The notes beneath the pieces were generated by a model. The model did not search any database. It was not told where the DNA came from and saw nothing but the letters and a program-made list of their open reading frames with translations. Made by a program: the position numbers and the translations under genes. Of a stretch of 64,000 nt of DNA, positions 1,909 through 14,871 are shown piece after piece; within the stretch, counting starts at the first letter, position 1, and each line of letters starts with the position of its first letter. This DNA is from a virus, in the IMG/VR virus record IMGVR_UViG_2861452123_000001, positions 13,139 to 77,138 of that record; one strand, given 5' to 3'.

Positions 1909-3132
1909 CTACGTTCCCTTCACATTCATGACCTGGCGCAGCGTCGTGACGACTTCCACTAGGGGGTCCGCATCGGCCATCACCTGGTCGATGTCCTTGT
2001 ACGCGCCGGGGATCTCATCGATCCACTCATCGCCATGCCGGTACTCGATGCCCTCCATGGCTGCCGCGAGATCGTCAGCGGTGAACAGTTCCTTCGCCTT
2101 GGTCCGGCTGAACTTCCGACCAGCACCGTGCGGGGCAGAGAACAGTCCGGCCTCGTTGCCCTTCCCCCGCACCACGTACGACTTCGTGCCCATGGAGCCG
2201 GGGATAACACCCAGCTTCCCATCGTGGGCATCGATCGCTCCCTTGCGAGTGAGCCATACCCGTTGTCCCCCAATGGTTTCCGGTACGGTGTAGTTGTGGT
2301 GGCAGTTGATCCGGTCGATCTCGACGCGCTGTGGCTGCACACCCATCCACCAGGCGAACACCTGGACGAACCGGTCCATCATCTCGGCCCGGTTCAGGAA
2401 CGCGAACCGCTGCGCCCACTCCAGATCCTTGATGTAGCGGTCGAACTCAGGCGTGCCCTCTTCGAGGAATGCCAGATCACGGTTGGGGAGCTTGTAGTTC
2501 GCGCACTTGCAGTTCTCGATCGCGTGAGGCGCGACCTGCTTCTGGAGGCAGTACTCCGTGGCCACCTTGATGTGGCGCTGTGCGATCTTGTTGCCGACGC
2601 CACGGCTACCGCTGTGCAGGAACAGCCACACGTTGTCGTCGGCGTCCACACACAGCTCGATGAAGTGGTTACCGCCGCCGAGCGAGCCGAGCTGCTCCAT
2701 CCACTTCGGCGAGTGCGACAGATCCACGTCCAGCTTCTGCTGCAACTGGATCAGCTCTTCGTGCTTCGCCTTCGTGAACGTGAACCGCTGCAGCGTCTTG
2801 TTGTAGTTGCCGGGGCTGAGCGGGATGGCCTCCTCGACCTGGCGGCGCAACGATGCGAGGTCGAGGTGTGAGATCAGATCCCACTTGAACCGCGTGGCGA
2901 CGGCGATCATGCCGCAGCCGATGTCGACGCCGACCGCAGCAGGGATCACCGCACCCCTCGTCGGGATGACGGTGCCGACCGCAGATCCCTTGCCCGAGTG
3001 AGCATCCGGCATCAGTGCGACGTGCGGGTAGACGAACGGCATGCTCGCTGTTTCCTTCGCCTGCTCCACCGTGTTGTGGTCGATCATGCTGGCGAAGTTG
3101 ACGAGCTTCGGCGCGAGAGTTGTGGCGCTCAC
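1909..3132 (-). CDS. rtcB: RtcB RNA ligase
   Basis: MPDAHSG, GVDIGCGM, QLGSLGGGNHFIE, LHSGSRG, HHNY, RKGA, PGSMG, HGAGR, DEIPGAYK motifs. Confidence 0.97.
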   Translation of the reverse strand: MSATTLAPKLVNFASMIDHNTVEQAKETASMPFVYPHVALMPDAHSGKGSAVGTVIPTRGAVIPAAVGVDIGCGMIAVATRFKWDLISHLDLASLRRQVEEAIPLSPGNYNKTLQRFTFTKAKHEELIQLQQKLDVDLSHSPKWMEQLGSLGGGNHFIELCVDADDNVWLFLHSGSRGVGNKIAQRHIKVATEYCLQKQVAPHAIENCKCANYKLPNRDLAFLEEGTPEFDRYIKDLEWAQRFAFLNRAEMMDRFVQVFAWWMGVQPQRVEIDRINCHHNYTVPETIGGQRVWLTRKGAIDAHDGKLGVIPGSMGTKSYVVRGKGNEAGLFSAPHGAGRKFSRTKAKELFTADDLAAAMEGIEYRHGDEWIDEIPGAYKDIDQVMADADPLVEVVTTLRQVMNVKGT

Positions 3133-3500
3133 CGGACATCCCATTCCTTGGAATGCGCCTTGATGGCGTCCACGCATGCCCGCTTGCCGTCGATCAGGTA
3201 CGAGCTGACCCCCGACTGCCACTCGTAGCCCGTGAGGCCACGGATGTAGGCGATGGCGTCAGCCGTCGACAGGGGCTGCCCCCAGTCGCCGTCGGAACGG
3301 AAGTCCTCAAACGGCGACGGGCATGAACAACCGCTGTCCTCGCCGATCCGGTACGCCTTGCGCTTGGTGTCGTACAGGACGACGAGGGTGTCGAAGCTGT
3401 AGCAGGGTTCGGACTTCTCGAACTCGAAGACGAACTCCAGGTGCTCCAGGCCGTCGTGATACGACAGCCAATACGGGCGCTCGTACGTCTCGGCGCTCAC
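3129..3500 (-). CDS. Hypothetical protein (DSGCSCPSPFED family of actinophages)
   Basis: GTGA-coupled ORF; Cys motif. Confidence 0.7.
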   Translation of the reverse strand: MSAETYERPYWLSYHDGLEHLEFVFEFEKSEPCYSFDTLVVLYDTKRKAYRIGEDSGCSCPSPFEDFRSDGDWGQPLSTADAIAYIRGLTGYEWQSGVSSYLIDGKRACVDAIKAHSKEWDVR

Positions 3501-4109: not shown

Positions 4110-4541
4110 TCAGCAGCCGCCGCTGCCCAGCGACGAGCCGATGAACCCACCCAGGAACGGGCCGAGGAATCCTCCACCGCCACCGGCAGATCCGCCACCG
4201 TAGTGGTTGATCGTGGTGCTGTTACCGCCGCTGGACGGCTTGGAGCTGGAGCCGCCACCGGATGGCTTGGAGCCTCCACCGGAGCCGCCCTTGGAGCCTC
4301 CACCGGACGAGCCATGGCTCCCGCCACCGCCACCGTGTGAGCCACCGCCGCCGCTGGAGTGTCCACCGCCGCCACCGCCGCCACCACCCTTGAGGGGAGG
4401 CGGGAGGAGCAGCGGGGCCGAGTACGACTGCAGCGCCACGGATTCCATTGCGCCGCAGGAGCTGGTCGAGTCGCAGCCGGTCATCAGGAGCGAGCCGGTC
4501 AGGGCCAGCGCGGGGAGGATGAGAAGGGGTTTCTTGGTCAT
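4110..4541 (-). CDS. Gly/Ser-rich lipoprotein
   Basis: Signal peptide with LMTGC lipobox, poly-G/S tract, C-terminal GGFLGPFLGGFIGSSLG. Confidence 0.75.
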   Translation of the reverse strand: MTKKPLLILPALALTGSLLMTGCDSTSSCGAMESVALQSYSAPLLLPPPLKGGGGGGGGGHSSGGGGSHGGGGGSHGSSGGGSKGGSGGGSKPSGGGSSSKPSSGGNSTTINHYGGGSAGGGGGFLGPFLGGFIGSSLGSGGC

Positions 4542-4560
4542 GTGAAATATGGTCACCCCG

Positions 4561-4570
4561 CCCTGTAATC
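4561..4570 (+). promoter_or_regulatory. CCCTGTAATC motif copy (followed by ACTGGTCAG)
   Basis: Exact 10-mer between the tRNA-operon terminator and the lipoprotein gene. Confidence 0.5.
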
Positions 4571-4582
4571 ACTGGTCAGGGC

Positions 4583-4617
4583 ACGAAAAAGCCCCCAGCT
4601 CTTACGAACTGGGGGCT
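4583..4617 (-). terminator. Intrinsic terminator of the tRNA operon
   Basis: AGCCCCCAG...CTGGGGGCT hairpin followed by TTTT. Confidence 0.85.
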
Positions 4618-4620
4618 GAC

Positions 4621-4693
4621 GTACTCGATGCGAGTATCGATCTCGCGCCTACAGATTGAGAATCTGGGATGCTTCCATTACACCAATCGAGCA
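4621..4693 (-). tRNA. tRNA-Glu(CTC)
   Basis: Cloverleaf, loop TT-CTC-AA, T loop ATCGATA. Confidence 0.8.
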
Positions 4694-4703
4694 TTGAAAC
4701 GAG

Positions 4704-4779
4704 CGCGGACAGCGGGATTTGAACCCGCGATCTCCACCGTGACAGGGTGGCGGGGACGGCCTGACTCCCCTATGCCTGC
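4704..4779 (-). tRNA. tRNA-Asp(GTC)
   Basis: CCACC-CTGTCAC-GGTGG arm, T loop TTCAAAT, G73. Confidence 0.9.
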
Positions 4780-4800
4780 ATGACTATTCAGTTATTGGAG

Positions 4801-4874
4801 TGGAGACGGTGAGAATCGAACTCGACCGCAGCAATCTTGCAAGGATCGCTCGCCCCCTTGGTACATGCGCCCCC
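4801..4874 (-). tRNA. tRNA-Ala(TGC)
   Basis: Loop CT-TGC-AA; G3:U70 pair; A73. Confidence 0.9.
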
Positions 4875-4877
4875 ATT

Positions 4878-4952
4878 GGCTCCCATGGCCGGAATCTCAC
4901 CGACGATCTCCGCGTAGACAGCGTGGCGGGTACTACTACCCTGCACAGGAGC
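4878..4952 (-). tRNA. Divergent second tRNA-Asp(GTC)-like gene
   Basis: Resembles the Asp gene at 4704; loop CT-GTC-TA; T loop TGAGATT. Confidence 0.55.
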
Positions 4953-4982
4953 GGGCAGTCACGCGTCACCGTGACTACTACC

Positions 4983-5060
4983 GGGCTGGAAGTCAGAATC
5001 GAACTGACGTAGTCCTACTTACTAGGTAGGTGCAAAGGGCCAACATTTGCAATTCCAGCC
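4983..5060 (-). tRNA. tRNA-Thr(AGT)
   Basis: CCTAC-CTAGTAA-GTAGG arm; perfect acceptor GGCTGGA/TCCAGCC. Confidence 0.8.
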
Positions 5061-5129
5061 TGACGCGGATGTGCTTCATATACACCACATCTAAGATGCC
5101 AGGCTTACGAACCTGGACCTTCCGCTAAG
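5061..5129 (-). ncRNA. Circularly permuted tRNA-like RNA 1 (YrlA-like topology)
   Basis: GCGGA-AGGT-[CCAGG TTCGTAAG CCTGG]-[CATC TTA GATG]-TG-[GTGT ATATGAA GCAC]-A-TCCGC. Confidence 0.7.
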
Positions 5130-5200
5130 TACCCAATGACCGAATTGAACAGTCGTCAACCGGGTGTAAACCGGCCGCTCTCCCATTGAGCTAATCGGGC
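5130..5200 (-). tRNA. tRNA-Val(TAC)
   Basis: GCCGG-TTTACAC-CCGGT arm; canonical D arm. Confidence 0.88.
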
Positions 5201-5265
5201 TTGAAAACCTGGCCTTGAGGCGCGTGCCCTAGAAGCGTTGCGCCACAGCGGGACAGGTGTTTACG

Positions 5266-5339
5266 AACTGGTAGCGGGATTCGAACCCGCACAACCTGTT
5301 TGGAAGACAGGGATGCTAACCGTTAAACATCACACCAGC
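5266..5339 (-). tRNA. tRNA-Gly(TCC)
   Basis: CCTGT-CTTCCAA-ACAGG arm; U73. Confidence 0.92.
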
Positions 5340-5340
5340 T

Positions 5341-5415
5341 TGGTACGGTCACCGGGTACTGCCCCCAGGTTTCCGTCTTATCAGGACGGCGTCCTTACTA
5401 TTGGACGATGACCGA
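5341..5415 (-). tRNA. tRNA-Ile(GAT)
   Basis: CCGTC-CTGATAA-GACGG arm; encoded ACCA; T loop GGCAGTA. Confidence 0.85.
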
Positions 5416-5416
5416 G

Positions 5417-5489
5417 TGGGTTGCCTGGGATTTGAACCCAGAACTGACACGTTAAGAGCGTGCGGTGATATCCGTTTCACCAACAACCC
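5417..5489 (-). tRNA. tRNA-Lys(CTT)
   Basis: GCACG-CTCTTAA-CGTGT arm; canonical T loop. Confidence 0.92.
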
Positions 5490-5790
5490 ATTGTTGTTGC
5501 CGCAGCTGACGATTCGCTGCGGCGATCTTGCGTACTTCGTTGCGGACGTGCTCGTCGCCTGGGTAGTTCGCCAGGTGCTCGGCTTGCGCCTTCCGCTGCT
5601 CGGCGTCGATGTTGGGCAGATCCTTGCCCAACCAGCACGCCCAGTTGAGGTTCTCATCGGTCAGCTCGACGTTCTGGCCAGCCGCCACGGCGGCGTTGTA
5701 CAGCTCGTCGTACTGCCGATTCCACTCAAGCTCCGCGTCACACAGCGGGCGGGTCATGGCCCAGACTTCGCGGAGGTTTGTGAGGCCCAT
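5452..5790 (-). CDS. Hypothetical protein inside the tRNA operon (3' end overlaps tRNA-Lys)
   Basis: AAGGAC RBS; phage-like codons. Confidence 0.65.
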   Translation of the reverse strand: MGLTNLREVWAMTRPLCDAELEWNRQYDELYNAAVAAGQNVELTDENLNWACWLGKDLPNIDAEQRKAQAEHLANYPGDEHVRNEVRKIAAANRQLRQQQWVVGETDITARS

Positions 5791-5813
5791 CGGTCCCGTC
5801 CTTCGTTGTTGCG

Positions 5814-5887
5814 TAGGTCACCCGAGAGTCGAACTCGGAAACTCTGCAGTCTGAGTGCAGTGGCTTTGCCAGTTTGCCCAGTGACCC
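5814..5887 (-). tRNA. tRNA-Leu(CAG) with short variable loop
   Basis: CTGCA-CTCAGAC-TGCAG arm; variable region only AGTTT; A73. Confidence 0.85.
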
Positions 5888-5888
5888 A

Positions 5889-5948
5889 TGGTGGCTGCCC
5901 GGTAGCCTGAACCCCTGTGAGCGCCAATGCCACCGACCGGCGGCAGCC
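5889..5948 (-). ncRNA. 60-nt hairpin RNA with acceptor-like stem and ACCA end
   Basis: GGCTGCC/GGCAGCC + ACCA; inner CGGTGGC/GCTACCG stem. Confidence 0.5.
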
Positions 5949-6004
5949 GTACTTTCGTGTCAGGGCACCTGGGCCTGAGCACGACCGGGTCCAGGTGCCC
6001 CTTG

Positions 6005-6075
6005 AGTGCCCGCCGCGATTCGAACGCGGGTGACTGGGGTTGCAGCCCAGCGCCTTGCCTCTCGGCCACGGTCAC
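6005..6075 (-). tRNA. tRNA-Cys(GCA)
   Basis: CTGGG-CTGCAAC-CCCAG arm; U73. Confidence 0.92.
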
Positions 6076-6078
6076 AAG

Positions 6079-6153
6079 TGGGGTGGTCGGCCGGTACTGA
6101 CCCGGCGTCGTCGCCGTTCACAGCGCGTGGCTCTACCTTTGAGCTACGACCAC
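6079..6153 (-). tRNA. tRNA-His(GTG)
   Basis: Loop CT-GTG-AA; C73 + CCA; weak anticodon stem; T loop GTCAGTA; T at position -1. Confidence 0.72.
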
Positions 6154-6155
6154 AG

Positions 6156-6228
6156 CACCGCTGACACGATTCGAACGTGCATTTGTGCGCCTTCGTAGGG
6201 CGGTGGGCCTCCGTTGCCCAACAGCGGT
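6156..6228 (-). tRNA. tRNA-Arg(ACG)
   Basis: CGCC-CTACGAA-GGCG arm; canonical T loop. Confidence 0.88.
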
Positions 6229-6253
6229 AGTGAGGCTTACGCCTCGTTGCAGA

Positions 6254-6496
6254 TTAATCCGCGCTGGTTGCCTCGGTGGCGGGCGTTTCGGCCACCGCTG
6301 GCACCTTCTTCGCTGGAGCCTTCTTCGGGGCCGCAGCGGGCTGCTCAGCGTCTTCGATCACTGCGTCGGTCTCGATCACGCCCGTCAGTGGCACCAGGCC
6401 AACCGCAAGGATGAGCTGCTCGATGAGTTCCGCGTGTTCGTTGATCGTGTCCGCTACGGCCTTGTCGATTCGTCCTGTGCTGACTCGTAGTGCCAC
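6254..6496 (-). CDS. Small hypothetical protein with Ala/Pro/Lys-rich tail, inside the tRNA operon
   Basis: GGAGG RBS + GTG; APKKAPAKK segment. Confidence 0.7.
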   Translation of the reverse strand: MALRVSTGRIDKAVADTINEHAELIEQLILAVGLVPLTGVIETDAVIEDAEQPAAAPKKAPAKKVPAVAETPATEATSAD

Positions 6497-6542
6497 TTGT
6501 TCCTCCGATTTGTGTTGTCCGATGCGGCCGCAAAGGACATCG

Positions 6543-6613
6543 TGGCGCAGACGGGATTCGAACCCGTAAAACTGGCTTATGAAACCAGGGTGATTCCGTT
6601 TCACTACCGCGCT
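6543..6613 (-). tRNA. tRNA-Met(CAT) (A1xC72 mismatch)
   Basis: CTGGT-TTCATAA-GCCAG arm; canonical T loop. Confidence 0.85.
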
Positions 6614-6760
6614 GCAGCCGCAGGACGTTTAACGTCCGCTGCGGCACGGACGGGTGTGGAGTGATATGGGGACGGGCGTTGTCCACGGCAACCCTGTAGC
6701 CGTCAGCGTCTTTCACCGGGGACGCAGAGACCGGCACCTACCTAACAACTTTGAGTGGCT

Positions 6761-6934
6761 CTAGGCCGCTATGACAGTGCCGTCCGGTAGGTGCGCCTTC
6801 AGGTCACTCAGTGGAAAGATCCGGCCGGTGAAGTACGTGCCCTCTGGCCATCGTGCCGCTGTCGTGGTTGGTCGGTCCCAGAGCTTCTCGTTGGAGAACA
6901 TTGGGTCGTCCCACCACTGCTTCTCATCTATCAC
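6761..6934 (-). CDS. Possible 57-aa protein starting directly after tRNA-Phe
   Basis: Own translation VIDEKQWWDDPMFSNEKLWDRP...DGTVIAA*; no RBS. Confidence 0.4.
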   Translation of the reverse strand: MIDEKQWWDDPMFSNEKLWDRPTTTAARWPEGTYFTGRIFPLSDLKAHLPDGTVIAA

Positions 6935-6935
6935 G

Positions 6936-7007
6936 CCGTGATGCCTGGAGCCGAACCAGGGCCTTCGGGTTTTCAGGCCGACGCTCTTCCAACTGAGCTA
7001 CAACACG
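6936..7007 (-). tRNA. tRNA-Phe(GAA)
   Basis: Loop CT-GAA-AA; canonical D arm. Confidence 0.85.
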
Positions 7008-7022
7008 ATTGGTTCCTCTGTT

Positions 7023-7242
7023 GTTGACGCTGCGAGGCACTCGGGACCGCGAATCCCGATCAGCGGGCGCCCTAACCCCGACACCCAGGGAGTCCCCCTA
7101 TTCCGCTGACCCACGTCAGTTTGGGACCACTGATCTGCGTGGAGGTTGGGGGGCCGATATTCCTACGCGCCTCGGCTTAACGCGAACTGGGGTGCCTCCG
7201 CGACGGCGCGTACGGTTCCTTGCAATCGAAGTCACCGTCAAC
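7023..7242 (-). ncRNA. ~220-nt structured RNA of unknown class
   Basis: Terminal stem GTTGACG/CGTCAAC; internal TACGCGCC/GGCGCGTA, CTGAC/GTCAG and TCGGGA/TCCCGA stems. Confidence 0.5.
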
Positions 7243-7249
7243 CCAAGCG

Positions 7250-7333
7250 CGGAGAGGAGTGGGCACGATCCACACGGCTGGGCCGCAAGCTGATTAGCAA
7301 TCAGTTCCCGCCACCTGGCGGGCTCCACTCTCC
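7250..7333 (-). tRNA. tRNA-Ser(GCT)
   Basis: Loop TT-GCT-AA; long variable arm; G73; T loop ATCGTGC. Confidence 0.85.
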
Positions 7334-7338
7334 AAAGT

Positions 7339-7410
7339 TGGCCTACCCTTTCAGACCGGCGTTGTCCCGGTGCACCTGTATTCACTCTTAGCCATGGCCA
7401 GGCGGGTAGG
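7339..7410 (-). ncRNA. Three-way-junction RNA ending in CCA
   Basis: CCTACCC/GGGTAGG + CCA; arms GCCTG/CAGGT and ACCGG/CCGGT. Confidence 0.45.
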
Positions 7411-7415
7411 TAACG

Positions 7416-7504
7416 CGGAAGGCAGAGGGCACGCTCCCCGAGCAGCCGAACTGCTACCTGGCTTTCGACACCAGTCGCCCCACTACGGGACTGCTGTACC
7501 TTCC
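7416..7504 (-). tRNA. tRNA-Ser(CGA)
   Basis: Loop GT-CGA-AA; long variable arm AGCAG/CTGCT; G73; T loop AGCGTGC. Confidence 0.8.
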
Positions 7505-7595
7505 ATGGGACGTATAACACTGTTTGTTCGGGTTCCCCCTACCGGCGTTACGTCATTATCAACCCGGTCTGCCACGACCCCGTCGTGGACTTTCG

Positions 7596-7670
7596 TCGGG
7601 AAGGCTGGATTCGAACCAGCGACACCCCGCTTCCAAAGCGGTCAGGCTGACCAAGCTGCCCCACATCCCG
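7596..7670 (-). tRNA. tRNA-Pro(TGG)
   Basis: CCGC-TTTGGAA-GCGG arm; C1:G72; A73. Confidence 0.92.
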
Positions 7671-7714
7671 ATTGCGACGGTTCCCACGACTTAGCTTTAC
7701 CGACAACGCATCAC

Positions 7715-7788
7715 GCACCCCGTCGAGGATTCGAACCTCAACCACCTGGATCAGAGCCAGGCATCCTGCCAGTTAAACGAACAGGGTA
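7715..7788 (-). tRNA. tRNA-Gln(CTG)
   Basis: CCTGG-CTCTGAT-CCAGG arm; canonical T loop. Confidence 0.88.
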
Positions 7789-7985
7789 TGGAGACGCTTC
7801 GTTCAGTCGGCCCAGCGTCACTGCCGATCACGCGCCCAGGCTGGGGACGGCCCTACCTACCCTCACCGTGCCCACGGGCGGGAGTGGTACCTCGCGTGTA
7901 TGTCAGAGCGGGTTCTCCCATTCATGACTGAGAGGGTGGACCGCTGACCCAGTTGACGGTTTGCCCCGGCCAACCAACGGAGTTG

Positions 7986-8067
7986 TCTCGACTGATGGAT
8001 TCGAACCACCACACCCGAAAGCTCTGATTTACAGTCAGAGATCCTTCGCCAATAGGAGAGAGCCGAG
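7986..8067 (-). tRNA. tRNA-Tyr(GTA)
   Basis: TCTGA-CTGTAAA-TCAGA arm; variable arm; C1:G72; A73. Confidence 0.88.
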
Positions 8068-8072
8068 ATGTC

Positions 8073-8173
8073 ATGGAATGACCGGCTTTTCCCCGGCATC
8101 TGCGACCGTCGACTGTCGCCGTGCTACCAAGAGCCGTCGCCACATGGCTGGTTTACCCTTGCACCACATTCCA
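8073..8173 (-). ncRNA. tRNA-like RNA with the anticodon arm replaced by a multi-hairpin insert
   Basis: Acceptor TGGAATG/CATTCCA; D-like and T-like arms; ~50-nt central domain. Confidence 0.5.
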
Positions 8174-8232
8174 AGTTTGGAGCCGGTGCTCGGCTCTTCG
8201 CCGACTAGCTAGCACGCACCGACACGTTTAAC

Positions 8233-8371
8233 GGAGCCGCTCTACCGTTGAGCCGTATACAACTGCCCGCACAAAGCCCCAACTGCTGGTACCGCGTCGG
8301 TGTAACTCTGCTCTCCCCCTGCAGAGGGAGCGGGAGGTCGCAGGGGGATTCGAACCCCCAACCACTCCTCG
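8233..8371 (-). ncRNA. Circularly permuted tRNA-like RNA 2
   Basis: GGAGT-GGTT-[GGGGG TTCGAAT CCCCC]-TGCGAC...GTTGTA-TACG-[GCTC AACGGTA GAGC]-G-GCTCC. Confidence 0.7.
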
Positions 8372-8444
8372 CTGGCCCACCAGGATTCGAACCTAGAGTC
8401 ACGCCTTAACAGGGCGTTGGTTTACCGGATTAACCGACAGGCCA
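8372..8444 (-). tRNA. tRNA-Asn(GTT)
   Basis: ACGCC-CTGTTAA-GGCGT arm; G73. Confidence 0.92.
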
Positions 8445-8848
8445 ATGGTATTGCAGTAATCACATCCGCTGCAACGCTGCCGATGTGTCCTTCCCCGATG
8501 GCAATTAGCGCACACCAGGTCGCACTTCACTGCTTCCGCTCGCATGCGGGCGAGGGAAACGATTGTGTTGCCGTCCGCTACACCGAATAGCTTCTCGGCC
8601 GGATCTCGGTGATCAAAATCCATCGCGTACGGCGGATATTCATTGCCGCAGTCGAGACACTTGCCCCCGTGCTCGGCAACCAGGGTTGCCTTGTTCTTTC
8701 GCCTAGTTCGAGCCACTGCATCAGAAGCCGATTCCTTTCGGCATACGTTGCAATGTCGGTCTTTTCGGATCACATCAACAGGACGATCACTGCGGTACTG
8801 GAACTCACTAAGTGCTTTCAATTTCCCACACTTGGGGCACGCTTTCAT
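8399..8848 (-). CDS. Free-standing HNH (homing-type) endonuclease in the tRNA operon
   Basis: CPKC...CNVC Zn motif, CLDC, MDFDHRDP, CDLVCANCH; RBS GAGGGTAGG. Confidence 0.88.
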   Translation of the reverse strand: MKACPKCGKLKALSEFQYRSDRPVDVIRKDRHCNVCRKESASDAVARTRRKNKATLVAEHGGKCLDCGNEYPPYAMDFDHRDPAEKLFGVADGNTIVSLARMRAEAVKCDLVCANCHRGRTHRQRCSGCDYCNTIGLSVNPVNQRPVKA

Positions 8849-9065
8849 GAGTTCACCTACCCTCTTATCAAGTCTGCCCCCACGGATGTCCGCAGTGGGG
8901 GATGCGGGGCAAATCGGTCGCCACTCCAGCGCCATTGCAGGCCGCGTATGCAACGGTGTGCGCCACTGTCGTTCGCGTTAGACTGCCTGCAACTAGGGCC
9001 GAACGGCGAACCGTCCAACCTCCACCACTTGCTTTTGAGGCGGGAAAGCAAGAAACCAAGTAACA

Positions 9066-9189
9066 GGCCCTGTGCTGCCTTACACCACGTCGACTCGCTC
9101 GCTGATCTGGCGGCGGCAGGCATGCGGCTGTACAGACGGCACACGATGTAAACGACGGCGGGACTTCGAAACCCGCACCAGGGCCTTTG
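9066..9189 (-). ncRNA. Circularly permuted tRNA-like RNA 3
   Basis: GGCCC-TGGT-[GCGGG TTTCGAAGT CCCGC]-CGTCG...CGACG-TG-[GTGT AAGGCA GCAC]-A-GGGCC. Confidence 0.72.
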
Positions 9190-9557
9190 TGGAGCTGCCG
9201 AGAATCGAACTCGGGTCTCATGCAGTGTTTGTCAAGCCTTCTACGTGCGTAGCGTTTGGCGACTTCTATACCGCTGCCCTCCGCGAGGCGGTTGCCGGTC
9301 TCCATTCCGGCTCTGCTCATGACTTCCGCTATTTTGCCTCTTGCGACGTGGTGCTCAATTCCTGCGAGGGTTCCCCGTATTTCGGCAGTGGATTGGCACA
9401 CGGAACGGGTGAACCGTTGTGCCCCACTGGACTAAGCCGCTGCGGCGTAGTCGGACGCGGTGAAAGCTGCGTTTATTGGGTTTGCACTGTTACGGGACGT
9501 TGCTTCCCGGCACGCTTCTCAAGACATACAAGCTCATGATCGAAACCTGTCAGCCCC
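9190..9557 (-). ncRNA. ssrA: tmRNA, tag (A)AAFTASDYAAAA
   Basis: 5' GGGGCTGACAGGTTTCGA; 3' GTTCGATTCTCGGCAGCTCCA with G3:U70; AATAAAC-GCA resume site; tag ORF 9470-9432. Confidence 0.95.
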
Positions 9558-9675
9558 AAAGGTATTGCTATGTAGTTGTCAAAGTCCCAATTGAAAGTGC
9601 TCAACCGGATTTTTGTTTGGGGGGGATTTTGAAACCAAAAGCCTTTTACCCAAACCGAAATCGCGGTTTACTGCG

Positions 9676-9748
9676 CGTAACCGGCACGATTCGAACGTGC
9701 ATCCACCCGCTTTGGAGGCGGGGACTCTACCAATTAAGCTACGTTCAC
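9676..9748 (-). tRNA. tRNA-Trp(CCA)
   Basis: CCCGC-CTCCAAA-GCGGG arm; G73. Confidence 0.92.
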
Positions 9749-9749
9749 A

Positions 9750-9784
9750 TGGTGGCCCACCGAGGCTTCGACTCCCGGTGGGCC
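9750..9784 (-). ncRNA. 35-nt acceptor/T-arm minihelix with ACCA end
   Basis: GGCCCAC-CGGG-AGTCGAAG-CC-T-CG-GTGGGCC-A-CCA. Confidence 0.55.
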
Positions 9785-9857
9785 AAGAGCCTGCCTCGCC
9801 ATTGATGGAAGGCTCTTACCTGTACCGCTGTGAGGCATTCGGTGCCTGACATGTATG

Positions 9858-9889
9858 AGATTAGAGGGTCGTGAAGAGGGATTACAGGG
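9858..9889 (-). promoter_or_regulatory. Phage-type promoter of the tRNA operon (CCCTGTAATC-N16-TAATCT)
   Basis: Motif 9889-9880; -10-like hexamer 9863-9858; directly after a terminator. Confidence 0.7.
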
Positions 9890-9890
9890 A

Positions 9891-9936
9891 AACGAAAAGG
9901 CCCCCTGACCGGCGTTGTCGCCAGCCTGGGGGCCTT
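9891..9936 (-). terminator. Intrinsic terminator upstream of the tRNA operon
   Basis: AAGGCCCCC...GGGGGCCTTTTCGTTT. Confidence 0.8.
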
Positions 9937-9956
9937 GGCCCGAAGCTCTCAGAAGG

Positions 9957-10142
9957 TCAGTTCTGTGGCGTGGGGAAGGAGTGGGCTGGGGCGGTGCCGG
10001 TGCCGTCGATTCGCTGATTCAGCTGGGCCAGCGTGAAGTCAGCGTGCGGGCCTGCGCCGACGAGCGGCTTGACGATGGCGGCGAGGGCGTCCTCGGCTGC
10101 CTGAGATCCGGTGAGGTTGTAGCTAGCGGGATCGAGTGCCAT
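9957..10142 (-). CDS. Hypothetical protein
   Basis: AAAGGA RBS; 61 aa. Confidence 0.7.
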   Translation of the reverse strand: MALDPASYNLTGSQAAEDALAAIVKPLVGAGPHADFTLAQLNQRIDGTGTAPAHSFPTPQN

Positions 10143-10206
10143 GGGTGTCCTTTGGTCTGAATGGTGTGCTGCGCAGCACCATCAGGTGGCGCGGGCTTCT
10201 ACAACC

Positions 10207-10229
10207 AGTTTAGCACGTGTTTGCTGGCT
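10207..10229 (-). promoter_or_regulatory. Putative promoter AGCCAGCAAACA-N5-TAAACT (with TGn extension)
   Basis: Same 12-mer and spacing as at 44335-44357. Confidence 0.45.
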
Positions 10230-10238
10230 GGGATTTTC

Positions 10239-10556
10239 TCACGCCCGCCAGTCGCGTGACTGTGGGTGCGTGCGACGCTTCTTCACCTTGCTGCCACGGC
10301 GCTGGTTGCAGACCAGGTGGCATGGGACAAGGTTGCTGTCGGCGTACGTGAGTGGGTCATCCCAGGCGAGCTGCGACACGGGGATGATGTGGTCGACGGT
10401 GGCGCTCAACGGATCTGGGTACTTTAGGTCGAGATCGATCAGTGTGCGGCATTCGTCGCAGATCTGGTTGGCCCGCAGGACTCGCTGCTTGGCTCGTTCG
10501 AACTTGGCCCCAGTCCGGCCGAGCGAGCGTGGGCCGTTCTTCGAGCTGGTAGGCAA
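10239..10556 (-). CDS. HNH endonuclease (terminase-associated type)
   Basis: CDEC, TVDHIIPVS, SNLVPCHLVCN. Confidence 0.9.
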   Translation of the reverse strand: MPTSSKNGPRSLGRTGAKFERAKQRVLRANQICDECRTLIDLDLKYPDPLSATVDHIIPVSQLAWDDPLTYADSNLVPCHLVCNQRRGSKVKKRRTHPQSRDWRA

Positions 10557-13041: not shown

Positions 13042-13638
13042 CTACGCCCATGAGCGAACCTCGGCTTCGAACGCGGGGTTGCATAGGGCCGCAGGCGACC
13101 GCTTATCGCGGAGTAGCGACACGATGAAGTCGCCGTCGATTGGGTCAGCGCCGGGGAGTTCCTGGCCCTGCCATTCGAGATAGAGCGCCTTGGCTGCGAC
13201 GAGGGACGACCGGTTGAGTCCAGCCTGGCAGTGCACCAGGACGGGGCCGGACTCGCGGCAGAGGTTGACCCAGCGAGCGAGCGCGTCGACTTGCTCGTAG
13301 CCCTGGTCCTCGGCGTCGTACATCTGCACGTACGTCTCGGACAGCACGTCATGGTTGATCGTGTACCGCTCCCACGGGTACAGCGACACCAGATGCTTGA
13401 TGTGCTTCGGGAGCACCAGGCCGGTTTCGCAGCCGCCCTGCCACAGGTTGTGTCCGATCTCGGAGATGTACGGCATGTCGAATGGCGTCCACCCATGGCG
13501 AGCCACGCCGCTGAGGCGCTGTGTCTGCGGGTCGGTGGTGATGTCGATGGCGGTGTGGTCGCCGTTGGACGCACGCCACTCGCGAGTAGTCGTTGGGTCG
13601 GTCACGACGAGGGTGATGTCCTCGGTGCGGAGCGCCAT
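13042..13638 (-). CDS. Dual-specificity (CX5R) phosphatase
   Basis: LVHCQAGLNRSSLV P-loop. Confidence 0.9.
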   Translation of the reverse strand: MALRTEDITLVVTDPTTTREWRASNGDHTAIDITTDPQTQRLSGVARHGWTPFDMPYISEIGHNLWQGGCETGLVLPKHIKHLVSLYPWERYTINHDVLSETYVQMYDAEDQGYEQVDALARWVNLCRESGPVLVHCQAGLNRSSLVAAKALYLEWQGQELPGADPIDGDFIVSLLRDKRSPAALCNPAFEAEVRSWA

Positions 13639-13877
13639 CAGATGCTGCTCAGGATGCCGTTGGCGTGGACCGTGGTGACGTAGCCGCGATTCACCAGCAC
13701 GTTGGCGGTAGCGACGAGTAGCTCGGCCCTACCCTCGTCGGTGGTGAGATGGTCGAAGAACTGCGGCACGTGGTCGGCCGGGATACCGGCAAACAGGTAG
13801 TTCACCGTGCGGTCGTATCGGTTCACGGTCACGTCGATGGCTACTCCATCGAATGCGCTGGGGTCCACGTCGCTCAC
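13638..13877 (-). CDS. Hypothetical protein
   Basis: 79-aa coupled ORF. Confidence 0.65.
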   Translation of the reverse strand: MSDVDPSAFDGVAIDVTVNRYDRTVNYLFAGIPADHVPQFFDHLTTDEGRAELLVATANVLVNRGYVTTVHANGILSSI

Positions 13878-14116
13878 TGGGTCTCCTCGGTCTTCTTGCT
13901 ACGGGCGATGGCGGCGTTGGCCCAGAACATGGCCTGTTCCAGGTTGGTTAGGGCGAGCGCCTTCTCGCGGCCAGGCGGAATGCGGTCGTCGTAGAGCACC
14001 GCAAGTTCCAGGGTGTCGCGGCGCACCTGTGTGTGAACTGCAGCCTTGACCGGCGACGGTGCATGGTGACTGAACCGGTGCTGGATGTCCTTGTAGGATT
14101 CGTTGGTGCTGTACAT
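13874..14116 (-). CDS. Acb2/Tad1-like nucleotide-signal sponge
   Basis: RFSHHAP...GREKALALTNLEQAMFWANAAIAR. Confidence 0.75.
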   Translation of the reverse strand: MYSTNESYKDIQHRFSHHAPSPVKAAVHTQVRRDTLELAVLYDDRIPPGREKALALTNLEQAMFWANAAIARSKKTEETQ

Positions 14117-14871
14117 CAGATCCCCACTGTGGCAGTTGATTTGAAGCTGTTGCGGTCGCGTCCCCACTTGCCGCACGCCTTGCACTGGAAGCGGCGGTAC
14201 CGGTAGGTGGTGTTTCCGGCGTGTCCTCGATACTGCACGTGATCGGAGCCGCAGTTCGAGCAGCGGATGGTGTCCGAGTCCTCTTCGAACAGGCCGAGAT
14301 TCATGCCTCGTAGCCACGGACGGAGCAGATAGAACAGCTCCTCGGTCAGCTCCACGTCGCGGCGGTTGTACCGCTCCATCGCGGCGTGGGCGCGGGCCAC
14401 GGTACCGGTGTCGGTGGAACGCAGGTCTGACCACAGCCCTGGCGGCGTCTTGTCCTTGCCTTCGAGGCCGAGAACGTCTGCGATGTAGGCCATTCGGTTG
14501 TACAGGAAGTCGAACTCGCGCTTGACGTTGACCATCAGGTCGATGTCGACGTGCGGCGACGGCGGGGTCAGCCCGTGCTCCAGGAGGACGGTGCGGAGAT
14601 GCTTCACGTCGAAGCGTCGGCTGTTCCACCCCACGACGTAGTCGGCTTCATCGAGGATGGCATGGATCTTGCGCGCCATCCCCTCCTGACCGTCGAGCCA
14701 CTCGGCGGAGAACTCGATGTCCGGCTTGTCGAGCCACTTCCACGCGAGGCAGACGGTGCGAGGTGCCTCGCGGAACGCTTCGGGCCGGATGAAGTCGGGC
14801 TTGAAGTCCCATACTTCCGCCAATCCTGCGATTCGCTCAATGTCGAGTGTGACGATCTTTGCGGCGGTCAT
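14116..14871 (-). CDS. RNase H-like (DnaQ/DEDD) 3'-5' exonuclease with C-terminal Zn finger
   Basis: LDIE, GWNSRRFD, YNRRDV, CSNC...CKAC. Confidence 0.85.
   Translation of the reverse strand: MTAAKIVTLDIERIAGLAEVWDFKPDFIRPEAFREAPRTVCLAWKWLDKPDIEFSAEWLDGQEGMARKIHAILDEADYVVGWNSRRFDVKHLRTVLLEHGLTPPSPHVDIDLMVNVKREFDFLYNRMAYIADVLGLEGKDKTPPGLWSDLRSTDTGTVARAHAAMERYNRRDVELTEELFYLLRPWLRGMNLGLFEEDSDTIRCSNCGSDHVQYRGHAGNTTYRYRRFQCKACGKWGRDRNSFKSTATVGI

Follow-up and report, generated by a model that had tools for sequence, protein, structure and literature searches.

The stretch of DNA considered here (the window) comprises 64,000 nucleotides (nt), positions 13,139 to 77,138 of the IMG/VR virus record IMGVR_UViG_2861452123_000001, and is a prophage on contig 19 of an 8.6 Mb actinobacterial genome. 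In its array of transfer RNA (tRNA) genes, which also holds a transfer-messenger RNA (tmRNA) gene, the gap between the tRNA-Val discriminator (5130) and tRNA-Thr base +1 (5059) is filled by a 69-nt sequence, here called element A (5061-5129, minus strand), which is a member of a permuted tRNA-like family and not a product of chance. Element A is probably a genuine, strongly reduced representative of a conserved small-RNA family found in the tRNA/tmRNA arrays of Vilmaviridae phages (clusters M and V) and of prophages, which would be released by processing of the array and which, more speculatively, may serve as a mimic of tRNA. Each member of this family has a tRNA body in circularly permuted order, without the terminal helix that binds Ro60 and without a Ro60 gene. 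Its parts begin with the 3' strand of an anticodon-like stem and continue with a variable region, a T arm, a hairpin-closed acceptor stem, U8-R9, a D arm and N26, the 5' strand of the same stem coming last. A permuted tRNA layout has been described for the effector half of YrlA (PMC4201824), where YrlA (RF02553) is a Y RNA bound by Ro60/Rsr in bacteria and in cluster C mycobacteriophages (PMC4201824; bioRxiv 10.1101/312249).

Read on the minus strand, element A is composed of CUUA, GCGGA, AGGU, CCAGG-UUCGUAAG-CCUGG, CAUC-UUA-GAUG, UG, GUGU-AUAUGAA-GCAC, A, UCCGC and GUCA. An earlier note on this DNA had listed these parts in the same order, and when the sequence was rebuilt piecewise it equalled that list, with 18 of 18 pairs in the four helices being Watson-Crick. 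The note had also claimed canonical tRNA spacing, and this is the case at every junction, where 0 nt separate the T stem from the acceptor, 2 nt stand for positions 8-9, 1 nt for position 26 and 4 nt for the variable region, but not in the loops (an 8-nt T loop and a single G in the D loop); it had stated correctly that the spacer is filled, the end of tRNA-Val differing by one position between the two programs that call it (Table 1). No tRNA was called by ARAGORN or by the Rfam tRNA model on either strand of 5061-5128, and element A has neither the free 7-base-pair (bp) acceptor end nor the anticodon arm with a 7-nt loop of a canonical tRNA.

A BLAST comparison of element A with 400 genomes of the same family gave no more than two matches of 21 nt, both to flanking tRNA sequence (E ~0.009), and against 50,697 phage records there was no full-length match and one weak match (E = 7), to EniyanLRS, which led to the relatives described below. 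Pattern searches were also made: the exact T-arm pattern had 0 matches in IMG/VR; a pattern joining both stem strands had 4, all in coding sequence and taken as chance; and a pattern of the form T loop ... GTGGTGTA ... AGCACA had more than 119, nearly all of them junctions of neighbouring tRNA genes, with the pairing test passed only by L088, an uncultured phage contig. In EniyanLRS (cluster V), the same parts stand in the same order directly 3' of the tmRNA, and the closing (anticodon-like) stem and the D stem are identical to those of element A, while the copy differs in its T-stem bases, in a 7-nt UUCGAAG loop, in the GG of its D loop and in an acceptor of 7-8 bp closed by a 23-nt insert. 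A 91.5% identical copy is found in Wildcat. R1, a covariance model for which the window element was the single input sequence and the structure was that proposed in the earlier note, finds the EniyanLRS and Wildcat copies at 42-44 bits, together with copies in cluster M records of IMG/VR and in the uncultured contig, and a layout descriptor written in Python recovered the same copies plus more.

The relatives come from EniyanLRS, Wildcat, MrMagoo, Aziz, Rey, Bongo, the IMG/VR records L137, L140, L142 and L143 (clusters M and V, Vilmaviridae), and the uncultured contig L088. A post-tmRNA group is made up of EniyanLRS, Wildcat, L140, L142 and L143; a divergent post-tmRNA form, with an acceptor insert of about 60-65 nt, is found in Bongo, Rey, L137 and the window itself (element B, 9061-9188); and a post-tRNA-Asn group occurs in MrMagoo, Aziz, Rey, L137 and the window (element C, 8229-8372). 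Every copy lies on the tRNA strand and, with the exception of one copy on L088, starts 0-4 nt after a tmRNA, tRNA-Asn, tRNA-Val or tRNA-Ile, and the elements are unannotated in the GenBank records of Bongo, Rey, EniyanLRS and Wildcat. Element A agrees with the cluster M and V elements in the order of parts, the strand and the array context; as in them, a conserved A precedes the stem and the tail has the form GUYA (7 of the 11 aligned members read GUUA). It differs from them in lacking an acceptor of 5-8 bp, a 7-nt UUCGANN T loop and a D-loop GG, and in standing between tRNA-Val and tRNA-Thr, whereas the others follow a tmRNA or tRNA-Asn. The acceptors of the relatives are closed by loops of 4-10 nt or carry inserts of 23 to ~65 nt. 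The relatives are 77-131 nt long as opposed to 69 nt, and element A is the most reduced copy, with the shortest acceptor (4 bp), an extra T-loop base and no D-loop GG.

Because MAFFT misaligned the members with long inserts, model-based alignments were used, and covariation was computed on such an alignment of 11 members. In this alignment, 98.4% of cells are paired and both sides have changed in 11 of 17 pairs, with such pairs in each of the four helices, figures that are somewhat inflated because the alignment was fitted to a model structure that itself came from the earlier proposal. The covariation score is 0.72 as opposed to 0.21 in shuffles, none of the 500 shuffles reaching 0.72, and when partner columns were slid as a control, pairing fell to 37-54%. 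The stem differences among members are plain by eye: the closing stem, for example, occurs as GCGGA/UCCGC, GCGGG/CCCGC, GUGGA/UCCAC, GAGGA/UCCUC and GAGGG/CCCUC. The cloverleaf is the minimum-energy fold in most members.

Membership of element A in this family was also examined with models. A leave-one-out covariance model, R3, made from ten relatives with element A excluded, has element A as its best match in the window (52.6 bits, E 2.4e-11) and gives element C 35.4 bits, and element A scores 63.8 bits with model R2 and 105 bits with R1, the latter being a self score. Junctions of neighbouring tRNA genes, which are known false positives for YrlA-type models (PMC4201824), reach at most 29.3 bits with R3 in the window and at most 36.1 bits with R2 across all loci; non-standard pairs are marked in the alignments shown for them, and they were separated cleanly across all loci by their overlap with two ARAGORN tRNAs. 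Element A is matched by a model built from its relatives only, lies on the array strand, starts within 0-4 nt of a preceding tRNA or tmRNA and shares four covarying helices. The layout by itself says less: a loose descriptor of it, run over 17.2 Mb of genome strands, gave 181 matches, and the 46 with an insert of 30 nt or less correspond to about 2 in 10,000 for one given 69-nt spacer, so that, matches not being rare in a GC-rich genome, the layout alone is only suggestive.

The kinship with YrlA, and the separation from Ro60, were both part of the earlier note. With R2 and R3, RNAs of YrlA type are detected a short distance upstream of TROVE (Ro60) genes, both in the cluster C phage Astraea and in two Mycobacteriaceae genomes, with scores of 35-47 bits (46.7 bits in Astraea, where the RNA lies ~260 nt upstream of the Ro60 gene), and with the shared order of parts and the covarying helices this bears out the description of element A as a permuted, closed-acceptor tRNA mimic of YrlA type. 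A search with the Rfam YrlA model, which the note had proposed, was unproductive: no match to 5061-5129 was found at E up to 10 and the gathering score of 69 bits was not reached, with a model insensitive enough to give Astraea YrlA only 36.1 bits. The same model aligns locally to the tRNA-like part of the relatives. As the note had it, there is no Ro60-binding stem, since the flanks of element A are 4 nt long and abut tRNAs, so that no such helix can form. The absence of a visible Ro60 gene also held up, and extends to the whole 8.6 Mb genome, in which no TROVE gene was found; there was none in Bongo, Rey, MrMagoo or EniyanLRS either. A genome search for DUF2828, which was run without a working control, gave no match, and a Pfam scan of 20 open reading frames (ORFs) of the window gave no match to DUF7873 or to a Ro60-like domain.

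If element A is a working RNA, its biogenesis may follow from its position. It sits within the presumed transcription unit of the array, and the only terminator-like site predicted on the array strand (4300-10300 being searched) is that at 4590-4617. A precursor transcript of the array would include element A, whose 5' end would arise from 3' processing of tRNA-Val and whose 3' end would arise from the RNase P cut at tRNA-Thr, after which the released RNA would fold into a four-way junction. With an acceptor of 4 bp, it should escape both RNase P cutting and CCA addition, unlike M. smegmatis YrlA, which has an acceptor of 7 bp, is cleaved by RNase P and acquires CCA (PMC4201824). Speculatively, it could then act as an uncharged mimic of the tRNA body without an anticodon, binding or titrating a factor that recognises tRNAs.

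Several points weigh against this reading. The loops of element A are non-canonical, with a T loop of 8 nt instead of 7 and a D loop (AUAUGAA) that has a single G and lacks G18-G19; the nucleotides that form the D/T elbow (G18-G19 of the D loop, together with U54/A58 and C56 in a T loop of 7 nt) are thus missing from element A, whose three-dimensional mimicry of a tRNA is putative, whereas the elbow feature, like the D-loop GG, is present in 9 of the 11 aligned members. The proposed cloverleaf has a predicted energy of -18.4 kcal/mol, or -20.5 if the T hairpin is given two further pairs, as opposed to -24.1 for a different three-way fold, and is therefore 3.6-5.7 kcal/mol less stable. No copy at the Val-Thr position was found in any relative, where the spacer is either 1-3 nt long or taken up by a stretch of 48 nt or by a different RNA of 60 nt, so that selection on element A cannot be measured; conservation of the pairings in homologous spacers, on which the earlier note had staked its proposal, is therefore seen at other array positions, in copies that are not orthologues, and not in the Val-Thr spacer itself. 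The expression and the RNA ends of element A are inferred, and the covariation figures carry the bias mentioned above. RtcB, whose gene stands at the end of cluster M arrays, is absent from some carriers: EniyanLRS, Wildcat and L088 have the element but no RtcB, which weakens its candidacy as an obligate partner.

The alternative that fares best, although it is clearly the less probable one, is that element A is a decaying, non-functional paralogue: a copy like those that follow the tmRNA in cluster V would have come to lie in the Val-Thr spacer, been stripped of most of its acceptor and insert, and now be drifting. Decay would account for element A being the sole copy found at the Val-Thr position, for its nearest relative being the post-tmRNA element of EniyanLRS with identical GCGGA/UCCGC and GUGU/GCAC stems, and for a cloverleaf that is not its minimum-energy fold; the extra T-loop nucleotide and the missing D-loop GG point the same way, the same paired loss being seen in the Wildcat copy. 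However, 18 Watson-Crick pairs out of 18 and exact junction spacing after a large deletion are not expected of random decay, the conserved A before the stem and the GUYA tail of the family are kept, and element A outscores its paralogue, element C, under the leave-one-out model. From the perfect pairing and exact spacing after that deletion, a minimal functional version is slightly favoured over a decaying copy.

It is improbable that the spacer works instead through its lower-energy fold, a long hairpin at 5094-5121 capped by CGUA together with a GAUGUG/CACAUC hairpin, as an element of processing or stability of the array transcript for which the tRNA likeness is ancestry only. This fold is the minimum-energy one (-24.1 kcal/mol, z-score -2.9 relative to shuffles), and its apical CCAGGUUCGUAAGCCUGG is similar to the upper part of the terminator hairpin of the array, where UUCGUAAG is likewise present; yet its hairpin is not followed by a U tract, and its helices find no support in the relatives, in contrast to the four covarying helices of the cloverleaf. 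Still less credible is a true permuted tRNA gene of the Cyanidioschyzon type, in which the ends would be joined, for example by the phage RtcB, and the acceptor opened to give a working tRNA. The RtcB gene 1.8 kb downstream in the same orientation, the 7-8 bp acceptors of larger relatives, and the RNase P cut and CCA addition in M. smegmatis YrlA (PMC4201824) would suit such a gene, but no acceptor end of 7 bp can be obtained from a hairpin of 4 bp and a 3-nt loop, the head and tail sequences provide no consistent anticodon loop, carriers in cluster V are without RtcB, and the 5'-phosphate and 3'-OH ends left by RNase P and RNase Z are, by established enzymology, not joined by RtcB. A chance resemblance, or a junction of two decayed neighbouring tRNA genes, can be set aside even though the loose descriptor has many chance matches in a GC-rich genome and tRNA-tRNA junctions mislead YrlA models (PMC4201824), since the two halves of element A pair with each other in two separate helices, it does not overlap two tRNAs, its leave-one-out E value is 2.4e-11 and the family covaries.

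The array in which element A is found runs on the minus strand from 9748 to 4621 and includes 17 tRNAs called by ARAGORN, 2 tRNAs found by Rfam only and 1 tmRNA; its features, and those of element A, are collected in Table 1. The DNA of the window and its RtcB protein are nearest to cluster M mycobacteriophages (Bongo, Rey, Skinny and Nanosmite; Vilmaviridae) and to related Mycobacterium prophages. The two Rfam-only matches, 5344-5415 and 6082-6153 (both minus strand; 41.8 and 39.4 bits, not called by ARAGORN), are probably non-canonical tRNAs of the array. In the terminator hairpin at 4590-4617 (minus strand), the loop UUCGUAAG and a similar stem top are found, as in the T-like hairpin of element A. 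Elsewhere in the window, an ORF at 13874-14629 (minus strand) matches the Acb2/Tad1 hairpin domain of Pfam (E 1e-18), pointing to a signalling-nucleotide sponge of the anti-CBASS/anti-Thoeris kind in the prophage.

Table 1. Positions in the window of element A, its parts and paralogues, and other features of the array region
Feature	Position	Strand	Basis or remark
Element A, 69-nt permuted closed-acceptor tRNA-like RNA	5061..5129	-	Sequence and covariance models
GCGGA, 3' strand of anticodon-like stem (partner 5065-5069)	5121..5125	-	Sequence, covariation
T-arm-like hairpin CCAGG-UUCGUAAG-CCUGG, 8-nt loop	5099..5116	-	Stem covaries at 3/5 pairs
Closed acceptor-like hairpin CAUC-UUA-GAUG, 4 bp, 3-nt loop	5088..5098	-	Sequence
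UG (positions 8-9) and D-arm-like hairpin GUGU-AUAUGAA-GCAC	5071..5087	-	D stem identical to EniyanLRS/Wildcat copies
A26 equivalent and UCCGC, 5' strand of anticodon-like stem	5065..5070	-	Sequence, covariation
Tail GUCA at the 3' end (GUUA in the family consensus), up to the tRNA-Thr RNase P site	5061..5064	-	Alignment
tRNA-Val(UAC), without encoded CCA	5130..5200	-	ARAGORN and Rfam; end 5130 (Rfam) or 5129 (ARAGORN)
tRNA-Thr(AGU)	4983..5059	-	ARAGORN
Element C, directly 3' of tRNA-Asn; canonical T and D arms, long acceptor insert	8229..8372	-	R2 34.9 bits, R3 35.4 bits
Element B, directly 3' of tmRNA	9061..9188	-	R2 27.5 bits
tmRNA gene of the array	9187..9557	-	ARAGORN; Rfam 90.5 bits
Terminator-like site after tRNA-Glu, last tRNA of the array	4590..4617	-	Prediction
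RtcB RNA ligase gene, downstream of the array	1909..3222	-	Pfam RtcB, E 2e-111

Element B consists of an AGGCCC/GGGCCU closing stem, a T arm, a CGUCG/CGACG acceptor with an insert of ~65 nt, UG, GUGU-AAGGCA-GCAC and the tail GUUA, and the copies in Bongo, Rey and L137, which occupy the same position, are followed by a conserved structured stretch (GGUUUCC...GGUGGUGGA). Element C, whose position is shared with the copies in MrMagoo, Aziz, Rey and L137, is the only element of the window with a full-length Rfam YrlA alignment, a weak one (17.4 bits) in which the inner part of the YrlA terminal helix is deleted. Immediately after the post-tRNA-Asn element of Aziz, a 26-bit R2 match that overlaps no tRNA (L138:4881-4953, plus strand) may be a tandem second module. 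The D arm and closing stem of element A resemble a phage tRNA-Glu (L088:7397-7468), a likeness that hints at descent of the permuted family from a tRNA.

The different 60-nt RNA of cluster M Val-Thr spacers occurs at L001:751-811 and L003:1045-1104 (both minus strand), L136:8671-8730, L137:9339-9397, L138:8655-8714 and L139:8588-8647. It has a pseudoknot-like pair of covarying helices, in which an invariant CCGGG/CCCGG crosses a 5-bp helix that changes on both sides, and it has no Rfam match; the octamer CTTAGCGG is common to this RNA and the start of element A. A hammerhead ribozyme (CUGACGA) was considered for the 60-nt RNA of Skinny, Nanosmite and others and was rejected, as the GAAA core is not kept and Rfam gives no match.

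With respect to function, it is tentatively suggested that YrlA-type mimics independent of Ro60 form a distinct class of functional RNA in the translation modules of mycobacteriophages, which, standing directly behind the tmRNA or a tRNA, would be released by array processing and engage a factor that binds the tRNA body, in a conflict between host and phage over tRNA or ribosome rescue. If this is true, the 69-nt copy, being without elbow nucleotides, an acceptor that could be opened or an anticodon, would define the minimal core needed by the partner; it would be a natural minimal version if functional, and otherwise shows how such elements decay. Since the tRNA-like half stands alone, without Ro60 helix or gene, in well-studied phages of M. 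smegmatis that are genetically tractable (Bongo, Rey, Wildcat), these offer a clean system for finding the missing partner. The elements also matter for the annotation of arrays, as they occupy 'empty' spacers that annotation pipelines skip and give rise to false signals in tRNA and YrlA searches.

Permuted tRNA genes, as in Cyanidioschyzon merolae, and two-piece tmRNA genes yield a free, chargeable acceptor end after processing. In both, as in element A, the 3' half precedes the 5' half in the gene, and weak local Rfam matches of the permuted-tmRNA model are found at tmRNA/element junctions; element A differs from these genes in its 4-bp hairpin acceptor, in having no anticodon loop and in having no coding part.

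Y RNA-type mimics of tRNA are known only as partners of Ro60, and the binding partner of their tRNA-like half is still open (PMC4201824; bioRxiv 10.1101/312249). Two Mycobacteriaceae genomes have permuted tRNA-like elements ~100 nt from a tRNA gene (L165:1501-1578 and L166:1501-1576, both minus strand); their acceptor has 7 bp and the loop that closes it contains CCA. In one of these genomes (G121), 2.4 Mb separate the element from the sole TROVE gene. On L088, an uncultured 78-kb IMG/VR contig, elements at 7581-7677 and 7761-7837 lie in a tRNA array ~1 kb upstream of a TROVE ORF (L160:502-2313, 603 amino acids), with which they likely form a phage Ro60/Y RNA pair. While YrlA is encoded within ~4 kb of a Ro60/Rsr gene, element A belongs to a genome in which no TROVE gene was found, sits directly after a tRNA inside an array and, unlike YrlA, is without elbow nucleotides. 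The 10-bp terminal helix outside the tRNA-like part of Astraea YrlA has its counterpart in element A in 4-nt flanks, which leave it without a Ro60-binding helix. The RtcB gene nearby recalls the rsr-yrlBA-rtcBA operon, and the topology is the same in YrlA and element A, with a T arm, an acceptor closed by a hairpin, a D arm and an anticodon-like stem formed from both ends. Element A lacks the defining features of a Y RNA, but its fold is that of the tRNA-like module of YrlA.
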